A stretch of DNA of 64,000 bases, taken from NCBI GenBank assembly GCA_019119775.1, contig DWWL01000076.1, forward strand, positions 13,240 to 77,239, given 5' to 3'. Made by a program: the position numbers and the translations under genes. This DNA comes from Candidatus Lachnoclostridium pullistercoris. Its GTDB lineage: Bacteria > Bacillota > Clostridia > Lachnospirales > Lachnospiraceae. Under the pieces are notes generated by a model. That model did no database searches and was not told where the DNA came from. It worked only from the letters and a program-made list of their open reading frames with translations. Positions 5,798-63,322 of this stretch are shown here, piece after piece; position 1 is the stretch's first letter, and each line of letters begins with the position of its first letter.

Positions 5798-7654
5798 ATG
5801 TTCAACATAGAAGAAGAGTTAAAGAAACTCCCGGCCCAGCCGGGAGTTTACCTGATGCACGACGCCAAAGACGAGATCATCTACGTGGGAAAGGCAGTGA
5901 GCCTGAAAAACCGGGTGCGCCAGTATTTTCAGAGCAGCCGCAGCAAGACGGCGAAGATCGAGCAGATGGTGTCCCGGATCGCCCGCTTTGAGTACATCAT
6001 CACCGATTCAGAGCTGGAGGCGCTGGTGCTGGAGTGCAATCTGATCAAGGAGTACCGCCCCAGGTACAACACCATGCTGAAGGACGACAAAACCTACCCC
6101 TACATCAAGGTGACGGTGGGGGAGCCGTTTCCCCGGGTGCTGTTTTCCAGGCAGATGAAAAAGGATAAGAGCCGGTATTTCGGCCCCTACACCAGCGCGG
6201 GAGCAGTGAAGGACACCATTGACCTGATCCACAAGCTGTACAGAATCCGCACCTGCAGCCGCTCCCTGCCGAAAGATATCGGAAAAGAGAGGCCGTGCCT
6301 GAATTATCACATCAAGCAGTGCGACGCTCCCTGCCAGGGATACATCAGTGAGGCGGAGTACCGGGAGCGGATCGACCAGGTGGTGGAGTTCCTGAGCGGA
6401 AAATACGACACCATTTTAAAGAGGCTGGAGAAAAATATGATGGAAGCCTCAGAAGCGATGGATTATGAGAAGGCCATCGAGTACAGGGACCTTTTAAACA
6501 GCGTCCGGCAGGTGGCCCAGAAACAGAAGATCACCAGCAGCTCCATGGACGACCGGGACATTATCGCCATGGCGAGGGACGATCAGGACGCGGTGGTGCA
6601 GGTGTTTTTCGTGCGGGAGGGAAAACTCATCGGCCGGGAACATTTCCACCTGCGGACGGCTGTGGAGGAGGACGAGGCCCAGGTGCTCACCTGCTTTGTA
6701 AAACAGTTCTACTCCGGGACGCCCTTTGTCCCCAGAGAGCTCTGGACCCAGGAAAAGCTGGAGGATGAGGACACCATCAGCCAGTGGCTGACCATGAAAA
6801 AGGGGCAGAAAGTGCGGCTGGTGGTGCCCCAGAAGGGGCAGAAGGAAAGGCTGGTGGAGCTGGCCCAGAAAAACGCGGCCATGGTCCTGGAACAGGACAA
6901 GGAAAAGATCAAACGGGAAGAACTGCGCACCATCGGGGCCATGAACCAGATCGGGGACTGGCTGGGACTGAAATGGGTGCGCCGCATCGAAGCCTACGAT
7001 ATTTCCAATATCAGCGGATTTGACTCGGTGGGATCCATGGTGGTCTACGAGGATGGAAGGCCGAAGCGCAACGACTACCGGAAATTCAGGATCAAATGGG
7101 TCAAGGGAGCCAACGACTACGCTTCCATGCGGGAGGTGCTGACCCGCCGCTTTTCCCACGGGCTTGAGGAACATGAGCTCTTAAAGGAGAAAGGCGTGGG
7201 GGAAGAGTACGGCAGTTTTACCCGCTTTCCGGACCTGATCATGATGGACGGCGGAAAAGGCCAGGTGAACGTGGCTTTAGAGGTGCTGGACGAGCTGGGG
7301 CTGGAGATCCCCGTGTGCGGCATGGTGAAGGATGACAATCACCGCACCAGGGGGCTTTACTATCAGAATGTGGAGATCCCCATCGACCGCCATTCCGAGG
7401 GCTTTAAGCTCATCACCAGGATCCAGGATGAAGCCCACCGCTTCGCCATCGAGTACCACCGCAGCCTGCGCAGCAAAGGGCAGGTGCGCTCTGTGCTGGA
7501 TGACATTGAGGGGATCGGCGAGACGAGAAGAAAGGCGCTCATGCGCTATTTTAAATCCATAGAGGCAGTGAAGGACGCGGATGTGGAAACCCTCAGCCAG
7601 GTTCCCGGGATGAACCGGAGAGCGGCGGAGAGCGTTTACAATTTTTTCCACTGA
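5798..7654 (+). CDS. uvrC: Excinuclease ABC subunit C
   Basis: GIY-YIG (PGVYLM..IIYVGKA), [15 protein letters not shown]-terminal HhH. Confidence 0.97.
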
Positions 7655-39301: not shown

Positions 39302-41548
39302 ATGAAGGATTGGAAACCCATCTGCTGGATCATCGGCATTCCTGTGCTGATTGTGCTGCTGATGATCGGCATCGTGATTTATGAACCCATACAGAACGGA
39401 ATTTCCAGAGGAGAGGCCGCGAGGGCGGCAGTCCTGGCCATGGTGTCGCGGGAGGAATGCGAGAGTTTTCTCGAGGATAAGGTGTCCCGCTTCAAGGCCG
39501 GGGATACAGATGAGTGGTATGTGAAATACATGGACTATCTGTATGAAAACGGATACTTAGACGAGGAGAGGACGCCGGCTGACCCGGAGAGCGCGGAGGG
39601 CTACATCACCTACGGGGAAGTGGAGGCTCTGGCCGGGCATATCTCCGGATCTCTGAAAAATAAGGCCAGGGCGACGGTAAACAACCGGGATGACGCCATG
39701 CCCCAGGACGAGTGGTGGCTGTTTTATGACTCCATGCTGAACGCAGTGGACGGGGGCAGCCAGGTGAGAGATGAGGAGATCACCATTTATCAGGTGGGCA
39801 GCGGGGAGGAAGATCCCTGGACTGTCTATACCAGCGCCGGCACTCTGGACTGCGAGGGGCTGACTTTAAAGCGGTATGAGGACCGGAAGAGCCGGGCCCT
39901 TTACCGGGGGACCAGCCTGATCCTTTTTGAGGAGCCGGAGTCAGACCAGGTGGTCTATGAAAATGTCTGGATTGCGGAAGGAGACGGCGGGGACTGTCTG
40001 GTCTATGTGGGCGGCATCACCAAGACCATGAAGACCGGCTTTGACGATAAGGAAAAGGAAGAGCTTTACAATAACATTGTGGACCTCTACCTGGAAAACG
40101 GCCGCGTGCGGCGCGCGGTGGTGAAAAAGGAGCGGCTGTCCGGCCGGGTTCTGGCGGTTGACCAGGATTCCATCGAGATTGAGGGCTACGGAGAACTGCC
40201 TTTGAGTCCTACGTTCCAGGTATTCCAGACTTACGGCACCTTTGCGCGGAAACAGGTGAAGGACATTCTGGTGGGATATGACAACCAGGAGTTTGTGGTT
40301 TCAGACGGTCAGGTGTGTGCAGCTCTGATCGTGAGGGCATTCGACGCGGATACGATCCGGGTGCTTCTGATGGACACGGGCTTTCACTCCCTGTTCCATC
40401 CGTCAGTCACCCTGAAAAGCGGCGGAGATATGACTCTCACCTGGGCGGACGGCGGCACGGAGACGGTGAAGGCCGGGGAAGAATTTACGGTGTCCGCGGA
40501 GGAGTCCAGGTTAAAGAGCGGCCGTCTGATCATACAGCCGGCGGACGGGAAGGAGATTTCCGTGACTTCCATTGAGAGGAGTCAGGGGACGCCGTCTTAC
40601 GAGGGGCGGCTGGAGATCTCTGCGGAGCAGGACGGCCTGGCCCTGGTAAATGAATTGTATCTGGAAGATTACCTAAAGCGGGTGGTGCCCAGCGAGATGC
40701 CGGCCAGCTATGAAAAGGAAGCGCTGAAGGCCCAGGCGGTCTGCGCCCGCACCTACGCCTACCGCCAGATCCAGGCCAACGGCTACAGCCAGTACGGCGC
40801 CCATGTGGACGACAGCACCACGTATCAGGTGTACAATAATATTTCCACCAACAGCCGGACGGACGCGGCTGTGGATGAGACGTACGGACAGATCCTCACT
40901 TACGACGGGGCACCGGTGGAGGCATTTTATTTTTCCACCTCCTGCGGCGCGACGGCGGACGGCAGCATCTGGGGAGGCGATCCGGACGCGGTTCCTTATT
41001 TAAAGAGTAAAATGCTGGGCTCAAACCCCAACGGCTACGATCTTCGGAATAATGTGGATTTCTACAATTTTATCCGCGATAAGAGCTACCAGGCATATGA
41101 TTCGGACTACGCCATGTTCCGCTGGCAGACTACCACCACCAGCGAGATCCTGGAGCAGAAGGTGACAGGAATCGGCACGGTGGAAAATATCACGGTCAAA
41201 TCCCGGGGCGCCGGCGGCGTGGTGCGGGAGCTGGAGATCACCGGATCTGAGGGAGTCAAGGTGCTTAACGGTCAGAGCCAGGTCCGCTCGATTTTAGGCA
41301 GCAGCTCCTTAAAGATCCGCAGGAAAGACGGCACTACCATGACTGGCCAGGAGACACTTCCCAGCGCCTTTATCGCCATTGAGAAAGACGGGGACGTGTT
41401 CCGCATTTACGGCGGCGGCTACGGTCACGGAGCTGGAATGAGCCAGAACGGCGCCCAGGGCATGGCAAAGAAAGGGAGCGATTACGAGGAGATCCTCGCA
41501 TTTTTCTACGACGGCACAGAGCTTGCCGATGTGGAAGGAAAAGATTAG
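39302..41548 (+). CDS. SpoIID/LytB domain protein, membrane anchored
   Basis: LEDYLKRVVPSEMP, ALKAQAVCARTYA, GYGHGAGMSQNGA. Confidence 0.92.
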   Translation: MKDWKPICWIIGIPVLIVLLMIGIVIYEPIQNGISRGEAARAAVLAMVSREECESFLEDKVSRFKAGDTDEWYVKYMDYLYENGYLDEERTPADPESAEGYITYGEVEALAGHISGSLKNKARATVNNRDDAMPQDEWWLFYDSMLNAVDGGSQVRDEEITIYQVGSGEEDPWTVYTSAGTLDCEGLTLKRYEDRKSRALYRGTSLILFEEPESDQVVYENVWIAEGDGGDCLVYVGGITKTMKTGFDDKEKEELYNNIVDLYLENGRVRRAVVKKERLSGRVLAVDQDSIEIEGYGELPLSPTFQVFQTYGTFARKQVKDILVGYDNQEFVVSDGQVCAALIVRAFDADTIRVLLMDTGFHSLFHPSVTLKSGGDMTLTWADGGTETVKAGEEFTVSAEESRLKSGRLIIQPADGKEISVTSIERSQGTPSYEGRLEISAEQDGLALVNELYLEDYLKRVVPSEMPASYEKEALKAQAVCARTYAYRQIQANGYSQYGAHVDDSTTYQVYNNISTNSRTDAAVDETYGQILTYDGAPVEAFYFSTSCGATADGSIWGGDPDAVPYLKSKMLGSNPNGYDLRNNVDFYNFIRDKSYQAYDSDYAMFRWQTTTTSEILEQKVTGIGTVENITVKSRGAGGVVRELEITGSEGVKVLNGQSQVRSILGSSSLKIRRKDGTTMTGQETLPSAFIAIEKDGDVFRIYGGGYGHGAGMSQNGAQGMAKKGSDYEEILAFFYDGTELADVEGKD

Positions 41549-41889
41549 ATTTCCGGCCAGGGAGGCAGTTTCCCATGCCGTCTCCCGAAACGGAAAAATT
41601 TTTCAAAAAAATGGCGGTTTCCTGAATATATTTCCGAAAACCGCCAATACTACTAACAGTTACAAAAGAGGAAATGAATACTTATCCTCCCCTTTTTTAT
41701 ACCTCGCTTGTTCGCTGAGTGCAGCAGGCGGGGTATTTTTTGAGTTTTCCTTGATTTTTCAGGGGAAATGGGCGTTTCTGTTTTTTAGAACTGCGCCGGC
41801 AAAACATCAAACACCTGTTCTGACACCAATTTGACACCACCTTGTCCATTTCTGCATCCAGTCTTCTTCTGTTATTTGGGACATTTCTT

Positions 41890-42186
41890 TCATTTTATTG
41901 TATTTAAAAAAGTCAGCAGAGATTCTCTTTGTTCTTTGTTCAGCTGGTAAATGGCATTGATCAGAGGATCAGATATCAGCTTTTTCTCAGTTTCGTCATC
42001 AAAAAATTCCGACAATGAGATGCCAAGGGCATCGCAGACATAGGAAAGCACCTCAACGGTAGGATTTTTGTTTCCCAGCTCCACATCGCGGAGGTAACTC
42101 TGGGAGATGCCGGCGAGAGTGGCGAGCTTATTAACAGTATAGTGTTTTGCGGTTCTGAGGCTGGTAATCCTTGCACCTACATCCAT
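41890..42186 (-). CDS. XRE family HTH regulator
   Basis: LATLAGISQSYLRDVELGNKNPT..ALGISLSEFF. Confidence 0.9.
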   Translation of the reverse strand: MDVGARITSLRTAKHYTVNKLATLAGISQSYLRDVELGNKNPTVEVLSYVCDALGISLSEFFDDETEKKLISDPLINAIYQLNKEQRESLLTFLNTIK

Positions 42187-42243
42187 GATTGAGACTCCTT
42201 TCGATGATGGATTAAGGATAACAAAATTTAAGAAGAGAAATTA

Positions 42244-42284
42244 CATCTATAGAGATTGAAAGATATCTTTATAAATGCTATAAT
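42244..42284 (+). promoter_or_regulatory. Sigma-A promoter with flanking inverted operator
   Basis: TTGAAA-17-TATAAT; CATCTATAGAGAT (42244) and ATCTTTATAAATG (42265) form an imperfect inverted repeat around the -35. Confidence 0.6.
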
Positions 42285-42435
42285 GGCTGTGAATTATAGA
42301 AGTTTATTCCAAAAATCGCAGAAATACACAGGTAAGGAACAAAGTAATATGTGTTCAAATTAACGGAGCTCACGATGCCTGTTCTATTTGAAAGTATTAT
42401 TTATATCGAGAGGAGTGAAGTGGAAGAGGAATAAT

Positions 42436-42714
42436 ATGATAGCGATATTTGTTACATTATTGATATTGATCATATGCTGGTATGCCCCATTTCCAATAAT
42501 GGTTGCTATAGTTGTCGCAGATTGGATTTTTCCTGACCCGATTGCAGTTTTAGATGAGATTGGTCTTTTATTGATATTTTTTTCTCGATTGAAGAAAGTA
42601 TTGTTTATATGGAATTTTACTCATAAGCATAAAGTACTCACAGTTTTATTGCTTTTTACAGTGATATTTTTTACAGTTTGTCTTGTTCGATATATTTTAG
42701 GAATGTCCATATAG
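42436..42714 (+). CDS. Small membrane protein (DUF1232-like PDPI..LDE motif)
   Basis: Hydrophobic, DWIFPDPIAVLDE; AT-rich. Confidence 0.6.
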   Translation: MIAIFVTLLILIICWYAPFPIMVAIVVADWIFPDPIAVLDEIGLLLIFFSRLKKVLFIWNFTHKHKVLTVLLLFTVIFFTVCLVRYILGMSI

Positions 42715-42855
42715 GTAGAGAGTTGTTTAATGAATTACAGGAAAAATGTAGTTGCTTTTATATCAGTTTTTTAATCGGTATGGAACATCCATAAAATAAA
42801 AAGATCAATATAATTATGGCAAAAGTATATTTTTTTAAGAAGTGAGGAGAAAGAT

Positions 42856-43800
42856 ATGGGAAAACGTGAACGAAAAAGAGAAATTATTCAAAAATATTTG
42901 CCTAATTGCAGTACATGGTCGGTGTATACTTATGGCAATATCCCCAAAAGCAGGATTGATGGTGCATGTAAGTCTTACGCAGGCAGTGTGGATTATAATG
43001 AAGTGTTAGGCTTAATTGATGAAACTGTCTTTGGAAGTGGAAAAAAAGGTTTTTTATTTACTGTTGATGGATTCTATACTGATGGCAATAATAAATTTCT
43101 CAGATATTCAGATGGAATATCGTATAAATCGTTAGGCGCTGGTTATAATTTAACAGCTATGAATGAGATGCTTGATAAGCTGTATCAAATTGAATCGGAA
43201 CCAAGTGGATGGGATATAGCCGGAGCACTTTTGGGAGGAGCGTTTGATTTCCTGCAAGCATGGTCAGATAATTCAGATACATCAGAAAATATGGATACGG
43301 CAAAAGACGGATTTATTGAAAGTGAGGTAATTGAACCAGATGAAATAGTTGATGAAAGTAATTTCATTGATGTTGAAAACGATGATGATTGGAATAACAA
43401 AACAAGATGGGATTTAATTATTACATATCTGAAGTCTAGAAGTACGATGCTTCAATTTTCTTTGCTGCAAACGGATTGGCTGCAAGATTCATCGGAAATG
43501 ATAGACATACTTCATAGTTTGCAAAATGAAGATCTATCTATTGAAGAGTCCTGTGATGAAATAATTAAATCAGCAGATGAAGAAAAGGGGATAATAAAGG
43601 CGGAGTCAGCATATTCTTTTGAAAAAAATTCGCGCAGGTTTCAAAATAAACTTAAATATTATATATCGGAATTGAATATGTGCGATGAGGATGAAAAAAA
43701 GGATATACTAGAAGACTGTAAAACAGAAATTTCAGGATATCAAAAAATATTAGAACGCGAGATTTCTCAATTGAAACAAATTCGTTCTGTGATGGAATAG
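42856..43800 (+). CDS. Hypothetical protein, AT-rich, acidic helical C-terminus
   Basis: GAGGAG RBS; N-terminal NIPKSRI..DETVFGSGKKGFLFT motif. Confidence 0.75.
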   Translation: MGKRERKREIIQKYLPNCSTWSVYTYGNIPKSRIDGACKSYAGSVDYNEVLGLIDETVFGSGKKGFLFTVDGFYTDGNNKFLRYSDGISYKSLGAGYNLTAMNEMLDKLYQIESEPSGWDIAGALLGGAFDFLQAWSDNSDTSENMDTAKDGFIESEVIEPDEIVDESNFIDVENDDDWNNKTRWDLIITYLKSRSTMLQFSLLQTDWLQDSSEMIDILHSLQNEDLSIEESCDEIIKSADEEKGIIKAESAYSFEKNSRRFQNKLKYYISELNMCDEDEKKDILEDCKTEISGYQKILEREISQLKQIRSVME

Positions 43801-44023
43801 AATGGGAATGGCTGAGAAACTGGTATATTAAGAAATTGCACCCTGATGGAACAAATCCAGCGGGGTGCTTTTTTGTTTCCTGCTTTTCAGAGATGAAAGC
43901 TGCTTTCCTCTGCGGAAAGGAGGTGCAGAGGAAAATGCAGGGAGAAGTGGCTGGAAAGCTCGAAAAAGCGGAGGATGGAATTTAGCTGACATGGAGACAA
44001 GAGAAAAATAAGAGGAGGACAGA

Positions 44024-44320
44024 ATGAAAACGAAAGACTTTTTTGATATGGTGGTTGAGGAACGGATTGCTATGATATTGGGACAGAAGGAGATGGTCCG
44101 CGAAGTTGAGTGGATCGCCCAGGCAGAAGAGATGATGAAGAATGTTGATGCGAAACAGAAAAATTCTCTGCTGGCGTATATTAACCGGCTGATCGATGAA
44201 GTGGCTGTTTCGGAGAGAAAATTATACCTGGACGGAGTGAAAGATGGGATCTGGATAGCCGGGCTGGTGCTCCAATATCTGAAGCTGCCCCAGAACGCAG
44301 ACCCAGAGCACATTCTGTGA
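44024..44320 (+). CDS. Small hypothetical helical protein
   Basis: GGAGG RBS; LYLDGVKDG motif common in small clostridial proteins. Confidence 0.6.
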   Translation: MKTKDFFDMVVEERIAMILGQKEMVREVEWIAQAEEMMKNVDAKQKNSLLAYINRLIDEVAVSERKLYLDGVKDGIWIAGLVLQYLKLPQNADPEHIL

Positions 44321-44509
44321 CATTCTGGGATCAGAAGATTTTGAAATCAACATTTTCCCCGACGGCTTGCCTAGGCGTTCCTTGCGATCTGCCCTGGCTA
44401 TCCCAGCTCAGCTTCCTATTTTAGACTCTGCCTCTGTCCCCGCAAATTGACATAAAATTCCAGATAGGTTATACTACGGAAAGATCTAAGCAGAAAAGAG
44501 GAGCGCAGG

Positions 44510-59004: not shown

Positions 59005-60150
59005 ATGAAACAGTGTCCTGTTTTTAAAAAATGCGGCGGATGCCAGTATCTGAATCTGACTTATGAGGAGCAGCTGGAAAAGAAGAAAAAGGAGCTTCAG
59101 CGGCTGCTAAAGGGAACCTGCCCCATTCACGAGGTGATAGGGATGGAAAATCCCTGGCATTACCGCAACAAGGTGCATGCGGTGTTTTCCCATGACCGGA
59201 AGGGAAATCCCATTTCCGGAGTTTATCAGGAAAACAGCCATATTGTGCTGCCGGTGGAGAGCTGCCTGATTGAGGATGAAAAGGCGGATGAGATCATCGG
59301 TACGATCCGCGGGATGTTAAAATCCTTCAAGATCAGGACGTACGACGAGGATACGGGATATGGCCTGCTGCGCCATGTGCTGGTGAAACGGGGATTTGCC
59401 ACGGGAGAGATCATGGTGGTGCTGGTGACGGCCTCCCCCGTTTTTCCTTCGCGGAATAATTTTGTGAAGGCGCTGCGGCAGAAGCACCCGGAGATCACCA
59501 CGGTGATCCAGAATATCAACGGGAGAGACACCAGCATGGTGCTGGGCGACCGGGAACAGGTTCTGTACGGAAAAGGGTATATTGAGGATATTCTCTGCGG
59601 CTGCCGTTTCCGGATCTCTGCGCGCTCATTTTACCAGGTCAACCCGGTGCAGACGGAGGTGCTGTACGCTAAAGCTATGGAATATGCGGGGCTTACGGGG
59701 AAGGAGACGGTGATAGACGCCTACTGCGGGATCGGGACGATCGGGATTGTGGCCAGCAGAAGGGCGAAGCAGGTGACTGGCGTGGAGTTAAATCCTGATG
59801 CTGTCCGGGACGCCGTCAGAAATGCCAGAGCGAATAAGGCGGACAATATCCGCTTTTTCCAGGGCGACGCCGGCGATTTCCTCCAGAAAATGGCGGCGAA
59901 TGGGGAAAAAGCCGATGTGGTCTTCATGGACCCGCCCAGAAGCGGCAGCACGGAGCGCTTCATGGCCGCGGCCGCGGCCATGGGGCCGGAGCGGATCGTG
60001 TATGTCTCCTGCGGCCCTGACACACTGGCCCGAGATCTGAAGTACCTGAGGAAGAAAGGGTATAGAGTGGAGAAGGGAGTGGGAGTGGATTTGTTTCCGT
60101 GGACGGGACATGTGGAGACTGTCGCTCTGCTCACACGATATATTGTATAA
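59005..60150 (+). CDS. rlmD: 23S rRNA (uracil-C5)-methyltransferase, RlmD family (no TRAM domain)
   Basis: CPVFKKCGGC Fe-S motif, SFYQVN, DAYCGIG, DPPRSG, YVSC, HVETV. Confidence 0.92.
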   Translation: MKQCPVFKKCGGCQYLNLTYEEQLEKKKKELQRLLKGTCPIHEVIGMENPWHYRNKVHAVFSHDRKGNPISGVYQENSHIVLPVESCLIEDEKADEIIGTIRGMLKSFKIRTYDEDTGYGLLRHVLVKRGFATGEIMVVLVTASPVFPSRNNFVKALRQKHPEITTVIQNINGRDTSMVLGDREQVLYGKGYIEDILCGCRFRISARSFYQVNPVQTEVLYAKAMEYAGLTGKETVIDAYCGIGTIGIVASRRAKQVTGVELNPDAVRDAVRNARANKADNIRFFQGDAGDFLQKMAANGEKADVVFMDPPRSGSTERFMAAAAAMGPERIVYVSCGPDTLARDLKYLRKKGYRVEKGVGVDLFPWTGHVETVALLTRYIV

Positions 60151-60672
60151 ATGCAATATAAAAAGATATAAATAACACAAGATATAGTTGCTTGCGGAAA
60201 CATATTTTTGGGCAAAAGTAAGGGCAAAATGCCCGTAAATAAGGGAAAATAGTGAAGATGGGGTGTGGATAAGCATCCCATTTTTGCTGTTTTATAGGTG
60301 GATATTTTGGCCGGAATAAAGGTATGCTTAGAGATTTTCAGAATGGATATGTTGGGAATGTGGTGTGTTTCTTTATTTTACGGAATGTATATCAGTTTCC
60401 ACAGAGTGAAGAGGGGTAAGAAATAATGGCAGGATAACGGACTTATGCGAAAATGTTTTCTTTTGCTAGAAAGTATTGAATAATCTGAAAAAAGTATTTA
60501 TTTGTTTTGAAAGTGAAGATAAAGGAATTCTTACTCTCAGAGGATTAAAACAAAAGGGGGATATTGCTGCAAATGAAAGCTTCCCTATTCGGATATTGCT
60601 TATCTATAATCATATTTTTCAATCAAGATCAGTAATTTCAGATTGCCAGCCAAAATAGACACCAGTGCCATC

Positions 60673-60895
60673 TTAGGCGGACAGTGCAGGACAAATTATC
60701 CGACCAGACACAAACCATTATTCCACGATGTTTTGTCATGAGTCTATATCGTACATGATTACCTGGCAAAACAGGTAAACACTCGCCAGTGGCAGATTTG
60801 TCTAGGTAGATGATACTATTATGTGTTATTCATGTAAAGAATCTTTCGCAGCATAATGGTTTGTGTTCAGGTATGTTTCCTCGCTGTCCGCTTAA
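60673..60895 (+). other. ~220-nt rod-like imperfect hairpin (ncRNA or ssDNA origin/promoter)
   Basis: Four nested inverted-repeat pairs; non-Watson-Crick pairs in the stems are G-U/G-T on the + strand. Confidence 0.7.
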
Positions 60896-61044
60896 TACGG
60901 CCTGCTGTCCGCAAAAACGCTTGCTAAATTCTATGTGGTGAGTTTATTTCTATAAATGTATAGAAATTACTTAACATCCGCACCTGCAATTAATTACAAC
61001 TGTACATATCAATCAAATCTGGTATAATATATTTTGGAGGGATA

Positions 61045-61308
61045 ATGCTTATGAACAATAATTTTGATTATGGACATTTTGATATTGTCCTTGCCGATTA
61101 TTTAAGAGAAAAAGGGATAAGCAAGAATCAACTTTCAGGCAAAGCAAATTTACAACGAACGCAATTGAATTCATATTGTAAAAATAACATTAAAAGGCCG
61201 GATCTTGACGTTCTTGCTCGTATATGCTATGCGCTGGACTGCGATTTATCGGATATAATCCGTTACGTTCACCCTAAGAATAGAAATGGAGAGAATAATA
61301 ATGACTGA
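61045..61308 (+). CDS. XRE/Cro HTH regulator (possible RM controller)
   Basis: KGISKNQLSGKANLQRTQLNSYC..LARICYALDC; GGAGG RBS; overlaps next gene. Confidence 0.88.
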   Translation: MLMNNNFDYGHFDIVLADYLREKGISKNQLSGKANLQRTQLNSYCKNNIKRPDLDVLARICYALDCDLSDIIRYVHPKNRNGENNND

Positions 61309-63322
61309 TACAAAAGTAATTGTTATACCGGATGGAAAGATCTGTGATTATATTGATGGTAAGTTCAGAAATGATACCCCTGAAGAATATGTTAGGCAGA
61401 CTATTGAAAAACGTCTTGTAAACGAACACAAGTATTTACCTTCGCAAATAAGGATTGAATATACATTGCAAGTTGGTTCCAATAAACCAAGAGCTGATAT
61501 TGTAATTTGGGATAAGGATGTTACTGAGCAGACGCAGGGTACTATTAAATTAATTATTGAATGTAAGAAAGAGACTGTAGATGCACGGAATGCTAAAGAT
61601 GGAATTGCGCAGTTACAGTCTTATATGTCTGTTTGTCCAAATTGTGAATGGGGAATGTGGACTAATAGTATTCAAAAGTATGTATTCCGTAAATATTTGG
61701 ATGAGAATGGTAATATTTGCTTTATGGAATATAATGATATTCCTTCTGCAGATGGTAATCTTGACGAAGTCAATAGACCAAGTAGAAAGAGTCTGAAAAA
61801 TGCTTCAGATGATAATCTTCTATTTGTATTTAAGACTTGTCATAACCATATTTACGTTAATGATGGTATGCAGAAACAACCTGCATTTTTTGAATTACTT
61901 AAAGTGATTTTTTGCAAAATAGAGGATGAGCGTAATATACCTAATCCATTGGAATTCTATACTACATCTGAAGAACGTTCAAATCCGGATGGTCAATTAA
62001 CAGTTCAGAAGCGTATTTCTAAGATTTTTGAAAAGGTTAAAAAGCGTCATGGAAAAATATTTGATACTAATGATGAAATAAAGCTAACTCCACGTAGCCT
62101 TGCTTATATTGTTAGCGAATTACAGAGATATAGTTTGTTAAATACAAACATTGATATTAAGGGTAAAGCATATGAGGAAATTGTAGGCGCAAATTTGCGT
62201 GGGGATCGAGGCGAGTTTTTTACACCTCGAAATGTTATGAAGATGGTCGTTGAGATGATCAACCCTAAAATAGATGAACGAGTGTTGGATAGTTCGTGTG
62301 GAACTGGTGGCTTTTTAGTAACCGCAATGACACATGTAATTAATCAATTGGAGAAAAGTTTTTCGGAACAGATAGGTTCGTCAAAACAGGAATGGGATGC
62401 TGATTCTATAAGAACATTTCAAGATAAAATCTCGGAAATGGCTTCCACCAATTTCTTTGGATTTGATATTAATCCAGATCTTGTTAAAGCTACTAAGATG
62501 AATATGGTTATGAATAATGATGGAAGTGGGAATATACTCCAGACAAATTCCCTTTTACCACCTCATGAATGGACGGATGAGTTTAAAACACGGTTAGCAG
62601 ATGCGTTAGGTATCAAAAAGAGTGATATTCGAAACCATAACACTATTTCATATTTTAACGTTATTGTTACGAATCCGCCTTTTGGTAGTAAGATTCCAAT
62701 TAAAGATAAGGCAATTCTTGAACAGTTTGAATTAGCTCATATTTGGGAGAATGATAAGACGACTGGTACTTGGAAAATGACAGATCGTTTGCAATCATCA
62801 GTTCCGCCGGAAATACTTTTTATTGAGCGTTGTACACAATTCCTAGTTCCTGGTGGGAGAATGGGGATTGTATTGCCAGATTCTATTCTTGGGGCTCCTG
62901 GTCTGGGGTATATACGGGAGTGGATAATTAAAAATCATAGAATTATTGCAAGCATTGATTTACACGCAGATACTTTCCAGCCAGGAAATGGGACACAAAC
63001 CTCTGTATTGTTTTTACAAAAAAAGACAAAAGAGCAGAAAGACGCTGAAGAAAAAACAGGTGCTATGGCGGATTATAATATTTTTATGGCAATGATTGAA
63101 AAGGTCGGCCATGATAAACGTGGAAATCCTATTTTTAAGCATGATAAAGAAGGAAATGAGATTTTAGTTCCCGATACAAATAGTGTATTAGTTTTGGGTG
63201 AAACTGGTGAAGGCTCTCGAACTATAGCACATCAACAAAAAAAGAAAATTGAAGATGACCAGACTCCAGATGTTCCCCCAATTTTTTCCGAATGGAAAGT
63301 GCAGGAGGGATTGTCATGGTAA
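61301..63322 (+). CDS. Fused HsdR_N-type nuclease + N6-adenine methyltransferase (Type IIB/IIG-like RM)
   Basis: TPEEYVRQ, RADIVIW..IIECKK (PD-(D/E)xK); GEFFTPR, DSSCGTGGFL, NPPF. Confidence 0.88.
   Translation: MTDTKVIVIPDGKICDYIDGKFRNDTPEEYVRQTIEKRLVNEHKYLPSQIRIEYTLQVGSNKPRADIVIWDKDVTEQTQGTIKLIIECKKETVDARNAKDGIAQLQSYMSVCPNCEWGMWTNSIQKYVFRKYLDENGNICFMEYNDIPSADGNLDEVNRPSRKSLKNASDDNLLFVFKTCHNHIYVNDGMQKQPAFFELLKVIFCKIEDERNIPNPLEFYTTSEERSNPDGQLTVQKRISKIFEKVKKRHGKIFDTNDEIKLTPRSLAYIVSELQRYSLLNTNIDIKGKAYEEIVGANLRGDRGEFFTPRNVMKMVVEMINPKIDERVLDSSCGTGGFLVTAMTHVINQLEKSFSEQIGSSKQEWDADSIRTFQDKISEMASTNFFGFDINPDLVKATKMNMVMNNDGSGNILQTNSLLPPHEWTDEFKTRLADALGIKKSDIRNHNTISYFNVIVTNPPFGSKIPIKDKAILEQFELAHIWENDKTTGTWKMTDRLQSSVPPEILFIERCTQFLVPGGRMGIVLPDSILGAPGLGYIREWIIKNHRIIASIDLHADTFQPGNGTQTSVLFLQKKTKEQKDAEEKTGAMADYNIFMAMIEKVGHDKRGNPIFKHDKEGNEILVPDTNSVLVLGETGEGSRTIAHQQKKKIEDDQTPDVPPIFSEWKVQEGLSW

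Follow-up and report, generated by a model that had tools for sequence, protein, structure and literature searches.

At positions 60673-60912 of a stretch of 64,000 nucleotides from Candidatus Lachnoclostridium pullistercoris (hereafter the window) a rod-like hairpin of ~220 nt is found in a low-GC island, upstream of an XRE-RM operon. What is this hairpin, and does it serve the genes next to it? The first-pass annotation of the window postulated that one strand has been selected to fold, and offered two readings: an RNA-polymerase-primed single-strand origin (sso) or ssDNA promoter of a mobilisable element, or a 6S-like or switchable non-coding RNA linked to expression of the RM genes. Single-strand origins limit the host range and the establishment of rolling-circle plasmids and of conjugative elements, and to our knowledge very few of them are known outside Bacilli. 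The single-strand origins of ICEs are not findable by BLAST alone (PMC4595007).

We consider it probable that the rod is a MITE of ~294 bp with the ends of an IS21 element and a conserved centre of 139 bp of the ssoA/palA type, and that the copy in the window is a decayed passenger and no regulator of the RM operon. The coordinates of the features are collected in Table 1.

Table 1. Features of the rod hairpin and of the element which contains it (positions in the window).
Feature	Position	Strand	Remarks
Whole non-autonomous IS21-type element (MITE)	60637..60930	.	~294 bp; ends approximate, both tips decayed
Left IS21-type terminal inverted repeat	60637..60717	+	Subterminal repeats, in the order degenerate TAGACACCAG, GCGGACAG, CCGACCAG
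Core, putative single-strand origin of ssoA/palA type	60718..60856	- (inferred active strand)	139 nt; from BLAST, models R1 and R2, and covariation
3' RSB partner, base of stem	60718..60727	-	CGTGGAATAA in the window, having TGGAATAA in common with ssoA
-35-like box	60733..60738	+	TTGTCA in the window, TTGACA in 36/38 relatives
Apical helix GGCAAA / TTTGTC around variable tip	60765..60802	.	Helix 5 of the counted structure
RSB-like box	60843..60856	-	TTATGCTGCGAAAG in the window, TTATGCCGCGAAAG in the family consensus
Right IS21-type terminal inverted repeat	60857..60930	+	CTGTCCGC at 60884-60891 and 60905-60912; from alignment with L052/L066 and G177

A hairpin which folds on both strands

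The four nested arm pairs listed in the first-pass annotation are all present in the sequence where it placed them, and a repeat search returned an outer pair (60667-60684 with 60884-60901) and an inner pair (60708-60728 with 60846-60866; 21 nt, 86%) which contains the 14-bp perfect pair. Folded as RNA, the + strand of 60660-60925 gives -93.7 kcal/mol (z -6.12), and 0 of 200 shuffles were as good; the - strand gives -84.6 kcal/mol (z -4.17), a value which no shuffle reached. The long hairpin is real and its fold is well beyond chance. The fold had been described as specific for one strand, which it is not, because as RNA both the + and the - strand fold strongly. Using DNA parameters the - strand of the window core comes out at -23.6 versus -22.1 for the + strand, and the - strand, which is the one with the RSB box in its sense orientation (see below), is the more stable one in 33 of 38 family members.

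The argument for a selected + strand was that the substitutions leave wobbles on this strand only. As a count this holds, there being six G.T and no A.C at the consensus pairs of the window copy; as a sign of selection to fold it does not. All six G.T pairs are C>T changes on the + strand from consensus G-C pairs, and C>T on the + strand accounts for 8 of the 15 substitutions by which the window copy differs from the family consensus at conserved columns. No family-wide preference for the + strand is seen in the wobble counts, which are 28 G.T versus 45 A.C in the 38 members. The G.T pairs of the window are explained better by a drift from C to T on the + strand, or by decay of this copy, than by selection of the + strand for folding. 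The rod is made up of two parts, IS21-type ends on the outside and a separate conserved hairpin in the centre.

The outer arms are IS21-type ends

When relatives were searched, only 60640-60709 was matched, in G011, directly 5' of an ORF with an HTH-like N-terminus. A family-wide search found the same stretch in G177 as well, here as the left end of an IS21 element which codes for a 537-aa IstA (Mu-transpos_C_2) and a 245-aa IstB_IS21 and which has the repeats of its right end mirrored relative to those of its left end. Ends of the G177 type open with TGCA and have three or four CGGCCA/CGGACA repeats spaced ~22 nt apart, and the same layout is present on both flanks of the window rod. The window element is collinear with the Bariatricus/Lachnospiraceae MITEs L052 and L066 and with the left ends of the full IS21 elements G177 and G011, the collinearity beginning at (T)GCAGATTGCCAGCC; along 52-75 nt its left end shares ~80% identity with those of these two IstA/IstB-encoding elements. 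The right boundary was set 19 nt beyond the last CGGACA repeat, the distance which is found in G177.

The ends of the window copy have suffered. Its left tip is TTCAG where the relatives have TGCAG, and its right end is short of one repeat unit (~20-25 nt) relative to L052/L066 and has diverged over its final 12 nt, where the terminal CA is absent. No target-site duplication was found at the window copy, and the TG..CA tips are absent as well (TT on the left, diverged on the right). The element has no transposase gene; only chance ORFs of 43 aa overlap it. The second CCTGCTGTCCGC (60901-60912), which had been taken for an alternative partner of the 5' arm, belongs instead to the IS21-type right end, of which it is the outer subterminal repeat.

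The first-pass annotation had named a MITE, with equal folding on both strands and with target-site duplications, as the finding which would speak against its proposals. Both strands do fold and sister copies do have target-site duplications, whereas none is found at the window copy. The outer third of the rod is made up of the inverted ends of the MITE and not of origin sequence, and the descriptions as MITE and as origin are both true at once.

Sister elements and their IS21 partners

In ~28 of 37 full copies inverted repeats extend 75-100 nt out from the core. At least five families of terminal inverted repeats (TIR) flank the same core at the same core boundaries and with TG..CA tips, and conservation across lineages is higher in the core than in the transposon ends. 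The sister MITEs are bordered by target-site duplications of 4-7 bp (TACAT, TTTATT, GCAGT, GTTTG, AATGG, CTGTT, GAAAG, GTATT, CGCAGAT and CTTTC), and near-identical copies of MITEs are found in Mediterraneibacter, Catenibacillus, Claveliimonas and Lacrimispora. The window copy is nearest to the end family of L052, L066 and L081.

One locus shows a MITE together with an element which encodes the transposition proteins: in L049 (4472-7290) a MITE with matching ends begins 2 bp (TC) after the end of a complete IS21 (IstA of 529 aa, IstB of 258 aa). This arrangement resembles the known tandem junction of IS21. The genome of the window has a partial IstA at the end of contig C49 (55892-56671), 96% identical to the IstA of G177, and hence an IS21 of the family whose left end resembles that of the window MITE is present in this genome in unassembled form.

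The neighbours of the MITE-type copies are ordinary and heterogeneous, mostly chromosomal genes, and the orientation of the copies shows no bias relative to the local GC skew (16:10, p 0.33). It follows that an origin function would pay off only in the minority of copies which land on replicons with a ssDNA phase. Most copies of the family travel on IS21-type MITEs, and transposons appear to carry this signal around among gut Clostridia.

The conserved core is under selection as a folded strand

By BLAST, 60708-60866 matches sequences in other genera at 70-79% with flanks which are different each time; for the core itself the identity to cores of other genera is 70-76%, and the E values of the window core to family members are between 1e-18 and 1e-23. 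With a degenerate pattern of 24 nt made from the right arm, 81 stretches were picked up among species-representative genomes, many of them at contig ends; the hosts are Lachnospiraceae, Oscillospiraceae, Christensenellaceae, Erysipelotrichaceae and others. One genome (G181) has five matches. The hairpin is not prevalent: of 150 genera sampled in the family, 5 have it. No match was found when IMG/VR viral contigs were scanned with a pattern, so that the element is not phage-borne, and a BLAST of a consensus-like core against 72,556 PLSDB plasmids also gave no match.

An alignment of 38 sequences has 92% of its cells paired, a figure which drops to 37-47% in slid controls. Compensatory changes in homologues, the absence of which had been put forward as an argument against a folded function, are found at 22 of 44 pairs; compensatory cells number 157 against 50 in column shuffles, and none of 500 shuffles gave a number as high. 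Covariation of this kind across four helices indicates that selection acts on a folded single strand and not on the sequence of the duplex. Close to the base of the stem the TTGTCA box pairs with TGTAAA (60833-60838; TTTACA on the - strand) with one conserved mismatch.

The core resembles ssoA/palA origins

The RSB box of ssoA is 5'-TTATGCCGAGAAAATTT (PMC4598088). Its sequence TTATGCCGAGAAA is matched at 12 of 14 positions by the window and at 13 of 14 by the family consensus, in which TTATGCCGCGAAAG is the reverse complement of the invariant right end of the core. We found the RSB in pE194 at 642-654, and it is invariant in seven known ssoA sequences. At the other side of the stem base the partner box AATTGGAATAA is invariant in the same seven, and TTATTCCACG is nearly invariant in the 38 members of the Clostridial family. 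The pE194 hairpin is closed by TTGGAATAAA, like the Clostridial core, and TTGAC..TGAGCCTC is common to pC194 and the Clostridial family at the same place. A promoter TTCATG-17-CATAAT had been suggested within the paired stems of the rod; it is not conserved as a promoter, and its CATAA is the complement of the RSB box.

Two covariance models were searched reciprocally. R1 was built from the Clostridial alignment, with the window copy in the seed. Its best full-length matches are palA of pT181 (28.9 bits), pE194 (25.4 bits) and pC194 (22.4 bits), with E values from 3e-7 to 2e-5; the next match scores 10.8 bits, the opposite strands less than 8 bits, and pUB110 gives no match. R2 was made with ssoA sequences of staphylococci and Bacillus alone, seven in number. 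It recovers 13 of 13 Clostridial cores, each being the top match of its locus, at 21-40 bits (E 1e-7 to 4e-3) and always on the RSB-sense strand, the background being at most 15 bits. The degenerate window copy gets only 7.5 bits (E 7.5) with R2, at the correct place and on the correct strand, so that its assignment to ssoA rests on its membership of the Clostridial family.

The top R2 matches in the window are short AT-rich hairpins with E ~0.04. The first of these, at 60431-60503 (16.8 bits, E 0.04), has RSB-like ends (TTATGCGAAAA ... TTGAATAA) and could be either what remains of a deleted sso or an AT-rich hairpin which arose by chance.

The likeness to ssoA has a limit at the tip. The terminal loop of ssoA has the CS-6 hexamer TAGCGA/T, which is the primer-stop box. 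An exact CS-6 is found in the tips of none of the 38 family members, on either strand; the tip of the window - strand reads TGGCGA (complement of 60783-60788), which matches TAGCGA at five of six positions. Judged from its sequence, the Clostridial core is an RSB-bearing subtype related to ssoA rather than a canonical ssoA. The original proposal of an RNA-polymerase-primed single-strand origin is supported for the central 139 nt, by the reciprocal models and by the RSB and TGGAATAA boxes, and given up for the outer third, which consists of the MITE ends.

The active strand and a possible mechanism of priming

In the pC194 record one and the same strand has the RSB sense and the nick-site sequence CTTGATA (PMC10378824). 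Since the nicked strand of pC194 is thus the one with the RSB sense, the RSB-sense strand should be the displaced and active one, which in the window corresponds to the minus strand. We therefore infer that the active strand of the window core is the minus strand, and the orientation of the RSB thus points away from the plus strand, which had been thought to be selected to fold. It should be noted that the six G.T pairs of the window are mismatches on the minus strand, and this counts against the explanation which we prefer.

The mechanism we propose is based on the established behaviour of ssoA (PMC5703833; PMC8860593; PMC4595007), the position of the primer on ssoA being taken from secondary sources. 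As duplex DNA the element would be inert. If the MITE jumps into a plasmid, an ICE or an IME, rolling-circle replication or conjugative transfer would expose the minus-strand sequence, and the centre could then fold. The base of the stem would present the RSB (TTATGCYGCGAAAG opposite CGTGGAATAA) beside the -35-like heteroduplex TTTACA/TTGACA; the host RNA polymerase would bind in this RSB/-35 region and make a short primer towards the tip, which DNA polymerase would extend until the duplex is restored. IstA and IstB acting in trans would move the cassette, and the MITE could in this way spread the module to any replicon which it enters.

The window copy and the RM island

In the window the gene for a rlmD/TrmA-like methyltransferase ends at 60150, after which the GC content goes from ~55% to ~35%. 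Homology to genomes of the same genus stops at ~60111, and the closest relative (L117 2250-3810) has different DNA at this site, its first ORF being DUF262-like by eye and not by a profile match; the DNA 3' of the rlmD-like gene is thus a variable island, which suggests that the site is a hot spot for defence islands. The last 23 nt of the XRE (HTH_26) gene at 61045-61308 are shared with the start of the next gene (61286-63322), whose 678-aa product has HsdR_N_2 and N6_Mtase domains and which is followed by a gene for a specificity subunit. The layout looks like a controller protein with a fused RM enzyme, Type I-like. Since the contig breaks off ~1.1 kb beyond the window, the right boundary of the island is not visible; the ~4 kb of island which are assembled have no rep, relaxase, integrase or oriT. 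A second low-GC stretch of the window, 41500-44500 (33-41% versus ~55%), suggests another inserted segment.

Is the rod, then, a working single-strand origin or ssDNA promoter in the service of this XRE-RM island, as part of a mobilisable element with a single-stranded stage? The ssoA-like core, the position of the low-GC foreign DNA directly after the rlmD-like gene and the fact that TIR-less relatives of the core sit at the edges of integrative elements (see below) would agree with this. We nevertheless regard it as quite unlikely: the core is enclosed in IS21-type ends and must have arrived by transposition, the window copy is degenerate, the assembled island is without rep, relaxase and integrase, and the genes around the other MITE copies are unrelated.

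A structured small RNA, 6S-like or a switch, in control of the RM operon is very improbable. It could be imagined from the internal loops of the rod, from the better fold as + strand RNA and from the distance of 115 nt between the end of the element and the XRE gene. This gene has its own TATAAT outside the element, and the MITE-type copies elsewhere have unrelated neighbours, and we found no link to the XRE-RM operon; nor do homologues track with RM cargo, the relatives not being associated with RM genes. Rfam cmscan gave no relevant family in the window region at E <=10 or in 14 related loci at gathering thresholds, all matches together being tRNA, tmRNA, glmS and chance snoRNA. What was taken for an alternative arm is an end repeat of the transposon, and the + strand wobbles trace to C>T from the consensus.

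The preferred reading, a MITE with an ssoA-like centre, makes the window copy an incidental resident. It scores 129 bits with R1 compared to 150-165 for its relatives, and neither BLAST nor the covariance model found further copies in the 2.84-Mb draft genome. It is probably a decayed relic which arrived together with the low-GC island, and probably an immobile, inert passenger in this defence island.

Relatives without inverted repeats

Some cores have no TIR. Three of these (L072 2724-2920, L100 4514-4710 and L102 1683-1879) directly adjoin the 3' end of a serine recombinase gene (~500 aa). Next to L072 there is a tmRNA gene and next to L100 a tRNA gene, so that both of these copies seem to be located at the edge of integrated elements. 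In Christensenellaceae-type loci the two halves of the core have changed places about a short loop, and a gene for a REP_ORF2-G2P Rep of ~325 aa follows 20-40 nt downstream (L043, L084 at 6420-6480, L088, L091, L107 and similar loci). This permuted module has the form TGTAAAG-NNN-CTTTCGCGGCATAA, short loop, TTATTCCACGGTG-NNN-CTTGACA, in which the two NNN covary, and its RSB and TTTACA occupy the expected position of the Rep promoter. Among the neighbours of TIR-less and permuted copies a REP_ORF2-G2P rolling-circle Rep is found in 11 of 87; others are IS30-type rve/HTH_38 transposases and serine and tyrosine recombinases. It had been asked whether homologues go together with relaxase or integrase elements: the TIR-less copies are found beside Rep and recombinase genes, whereas the MITE-type copies have ordinary neighbours.

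The permuted loci bring up another possibility, which is that the centre of the MITE is conserved for a reason other than priming and that its likeness to ssoA reflects a shared module for binding of RNA polymerase. It might be a portable RNA-polymerase-binding or promoter cassette, a terminator or insulator hairpin, or a site for a host factor which aids IS21-type transposition; even taken jointly, we find these options unlikely. The nearly invariant TTGACA, the RSB and TTTACA at the place of the Rep promoter in the permuted Christensenellaceae module, and the chromosomal copies with no obvious ssDNA phase are what one would expect from such a cassette. Compensatory covariation in four helices, however, is a mark of selection on the folded single strand, and the full-length reciprocal matches with ssoA take in both boxes at the base and the overall geometry. 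The G.T and A.C counts show no RNA-like strand asymmetry, and a MITE which inserts at random has no consistent upstream promoter for its transcription.

A tentative general model

Returning to the reading of the core as an origin, we suggest a wider model which may be true, though we lean slightly against it. It hypothesizes that in gut Clostridia IS21-mobilised MITEs carry a working sso which is kept under purifying selection in at least five end lineages; that they have spread it into plasmids, ICEs and IMEs, where it would make second-strand synthesis efficient; and that the RSB/-35 module has been reused in permuted form before Rep genes. A full-text literature search found no description of a MITE or an IS element, IS21 derivatives included, which bears an sso.

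The covariance model and the alignment are a resource for the Clostridial ssoA-like family. If the proposed function is confirmed, it would explain how mobile elements of gut anaerobes acquire lagging-strand origins, and the core would be a part for vectors in gut bacteria which are hard to engineer. For the window the consequence is that a supposed regulator of the RM operon is removed.

Comparison with known systems

The outer part of the element is at home in the IS21 (IstA/IstB) family. The element family shares with it the long ends, the subterminal repeats ~22 nt apart, the TG..CA tips and the duplications of 4-7 bp; its ends are directly homologous to those of IstA/IstB elements, and it has the 2-bp tandem junction between IS and MITE. 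It differs in that the MITE codes for no transposase and that its interior is a conserved foreign module and not IS21 sequence; the window copy, in addition, is without tips and target duplication.

Hairpins of the Frpo and ssi type, from the leading regions of conjugative plasmids, are similar by description, being hairpins which recreate an ssDNA promoter for the host RNA polymerase. In the assembled part of the island, however, no oriT or leading-region context is visible, and the window element is not placed so as to drive a gene.

Closer are sso1 of ICEBs1 and the plasmid-like sso of other ICEs, which are examples of plasmid-type single-strand origins carried by integrated mobile elements and which have their role once the element has excised or been transferred (Wright, Johnson and Grossman, 2015, PMC4595007). 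The ICEBs1 sso1 is a fixed part of its ICE, whereas the candidate origin described here is on a small transposable cassette.

The closest likeness in sequence and structure is that to the ssoA/palA origins of pT181, pE194, pC194 and pSELNU1. Both are imperfect palindromes of ~140-180 nt, within the ~130-200 nt asked of an ssoA, with an RSB at the 5' base, a TGGAATAA partner at the 3' base and a -35-like box just inside, and each is found by the covariance model of the other. Unlike ssoA, the Clostridial tips are without a conserved CS-6, the hosts are Clostridia rather than Bacilli, and most copies are in transposon ends or at the edges of integrative elements and not on small Rep plasmids.
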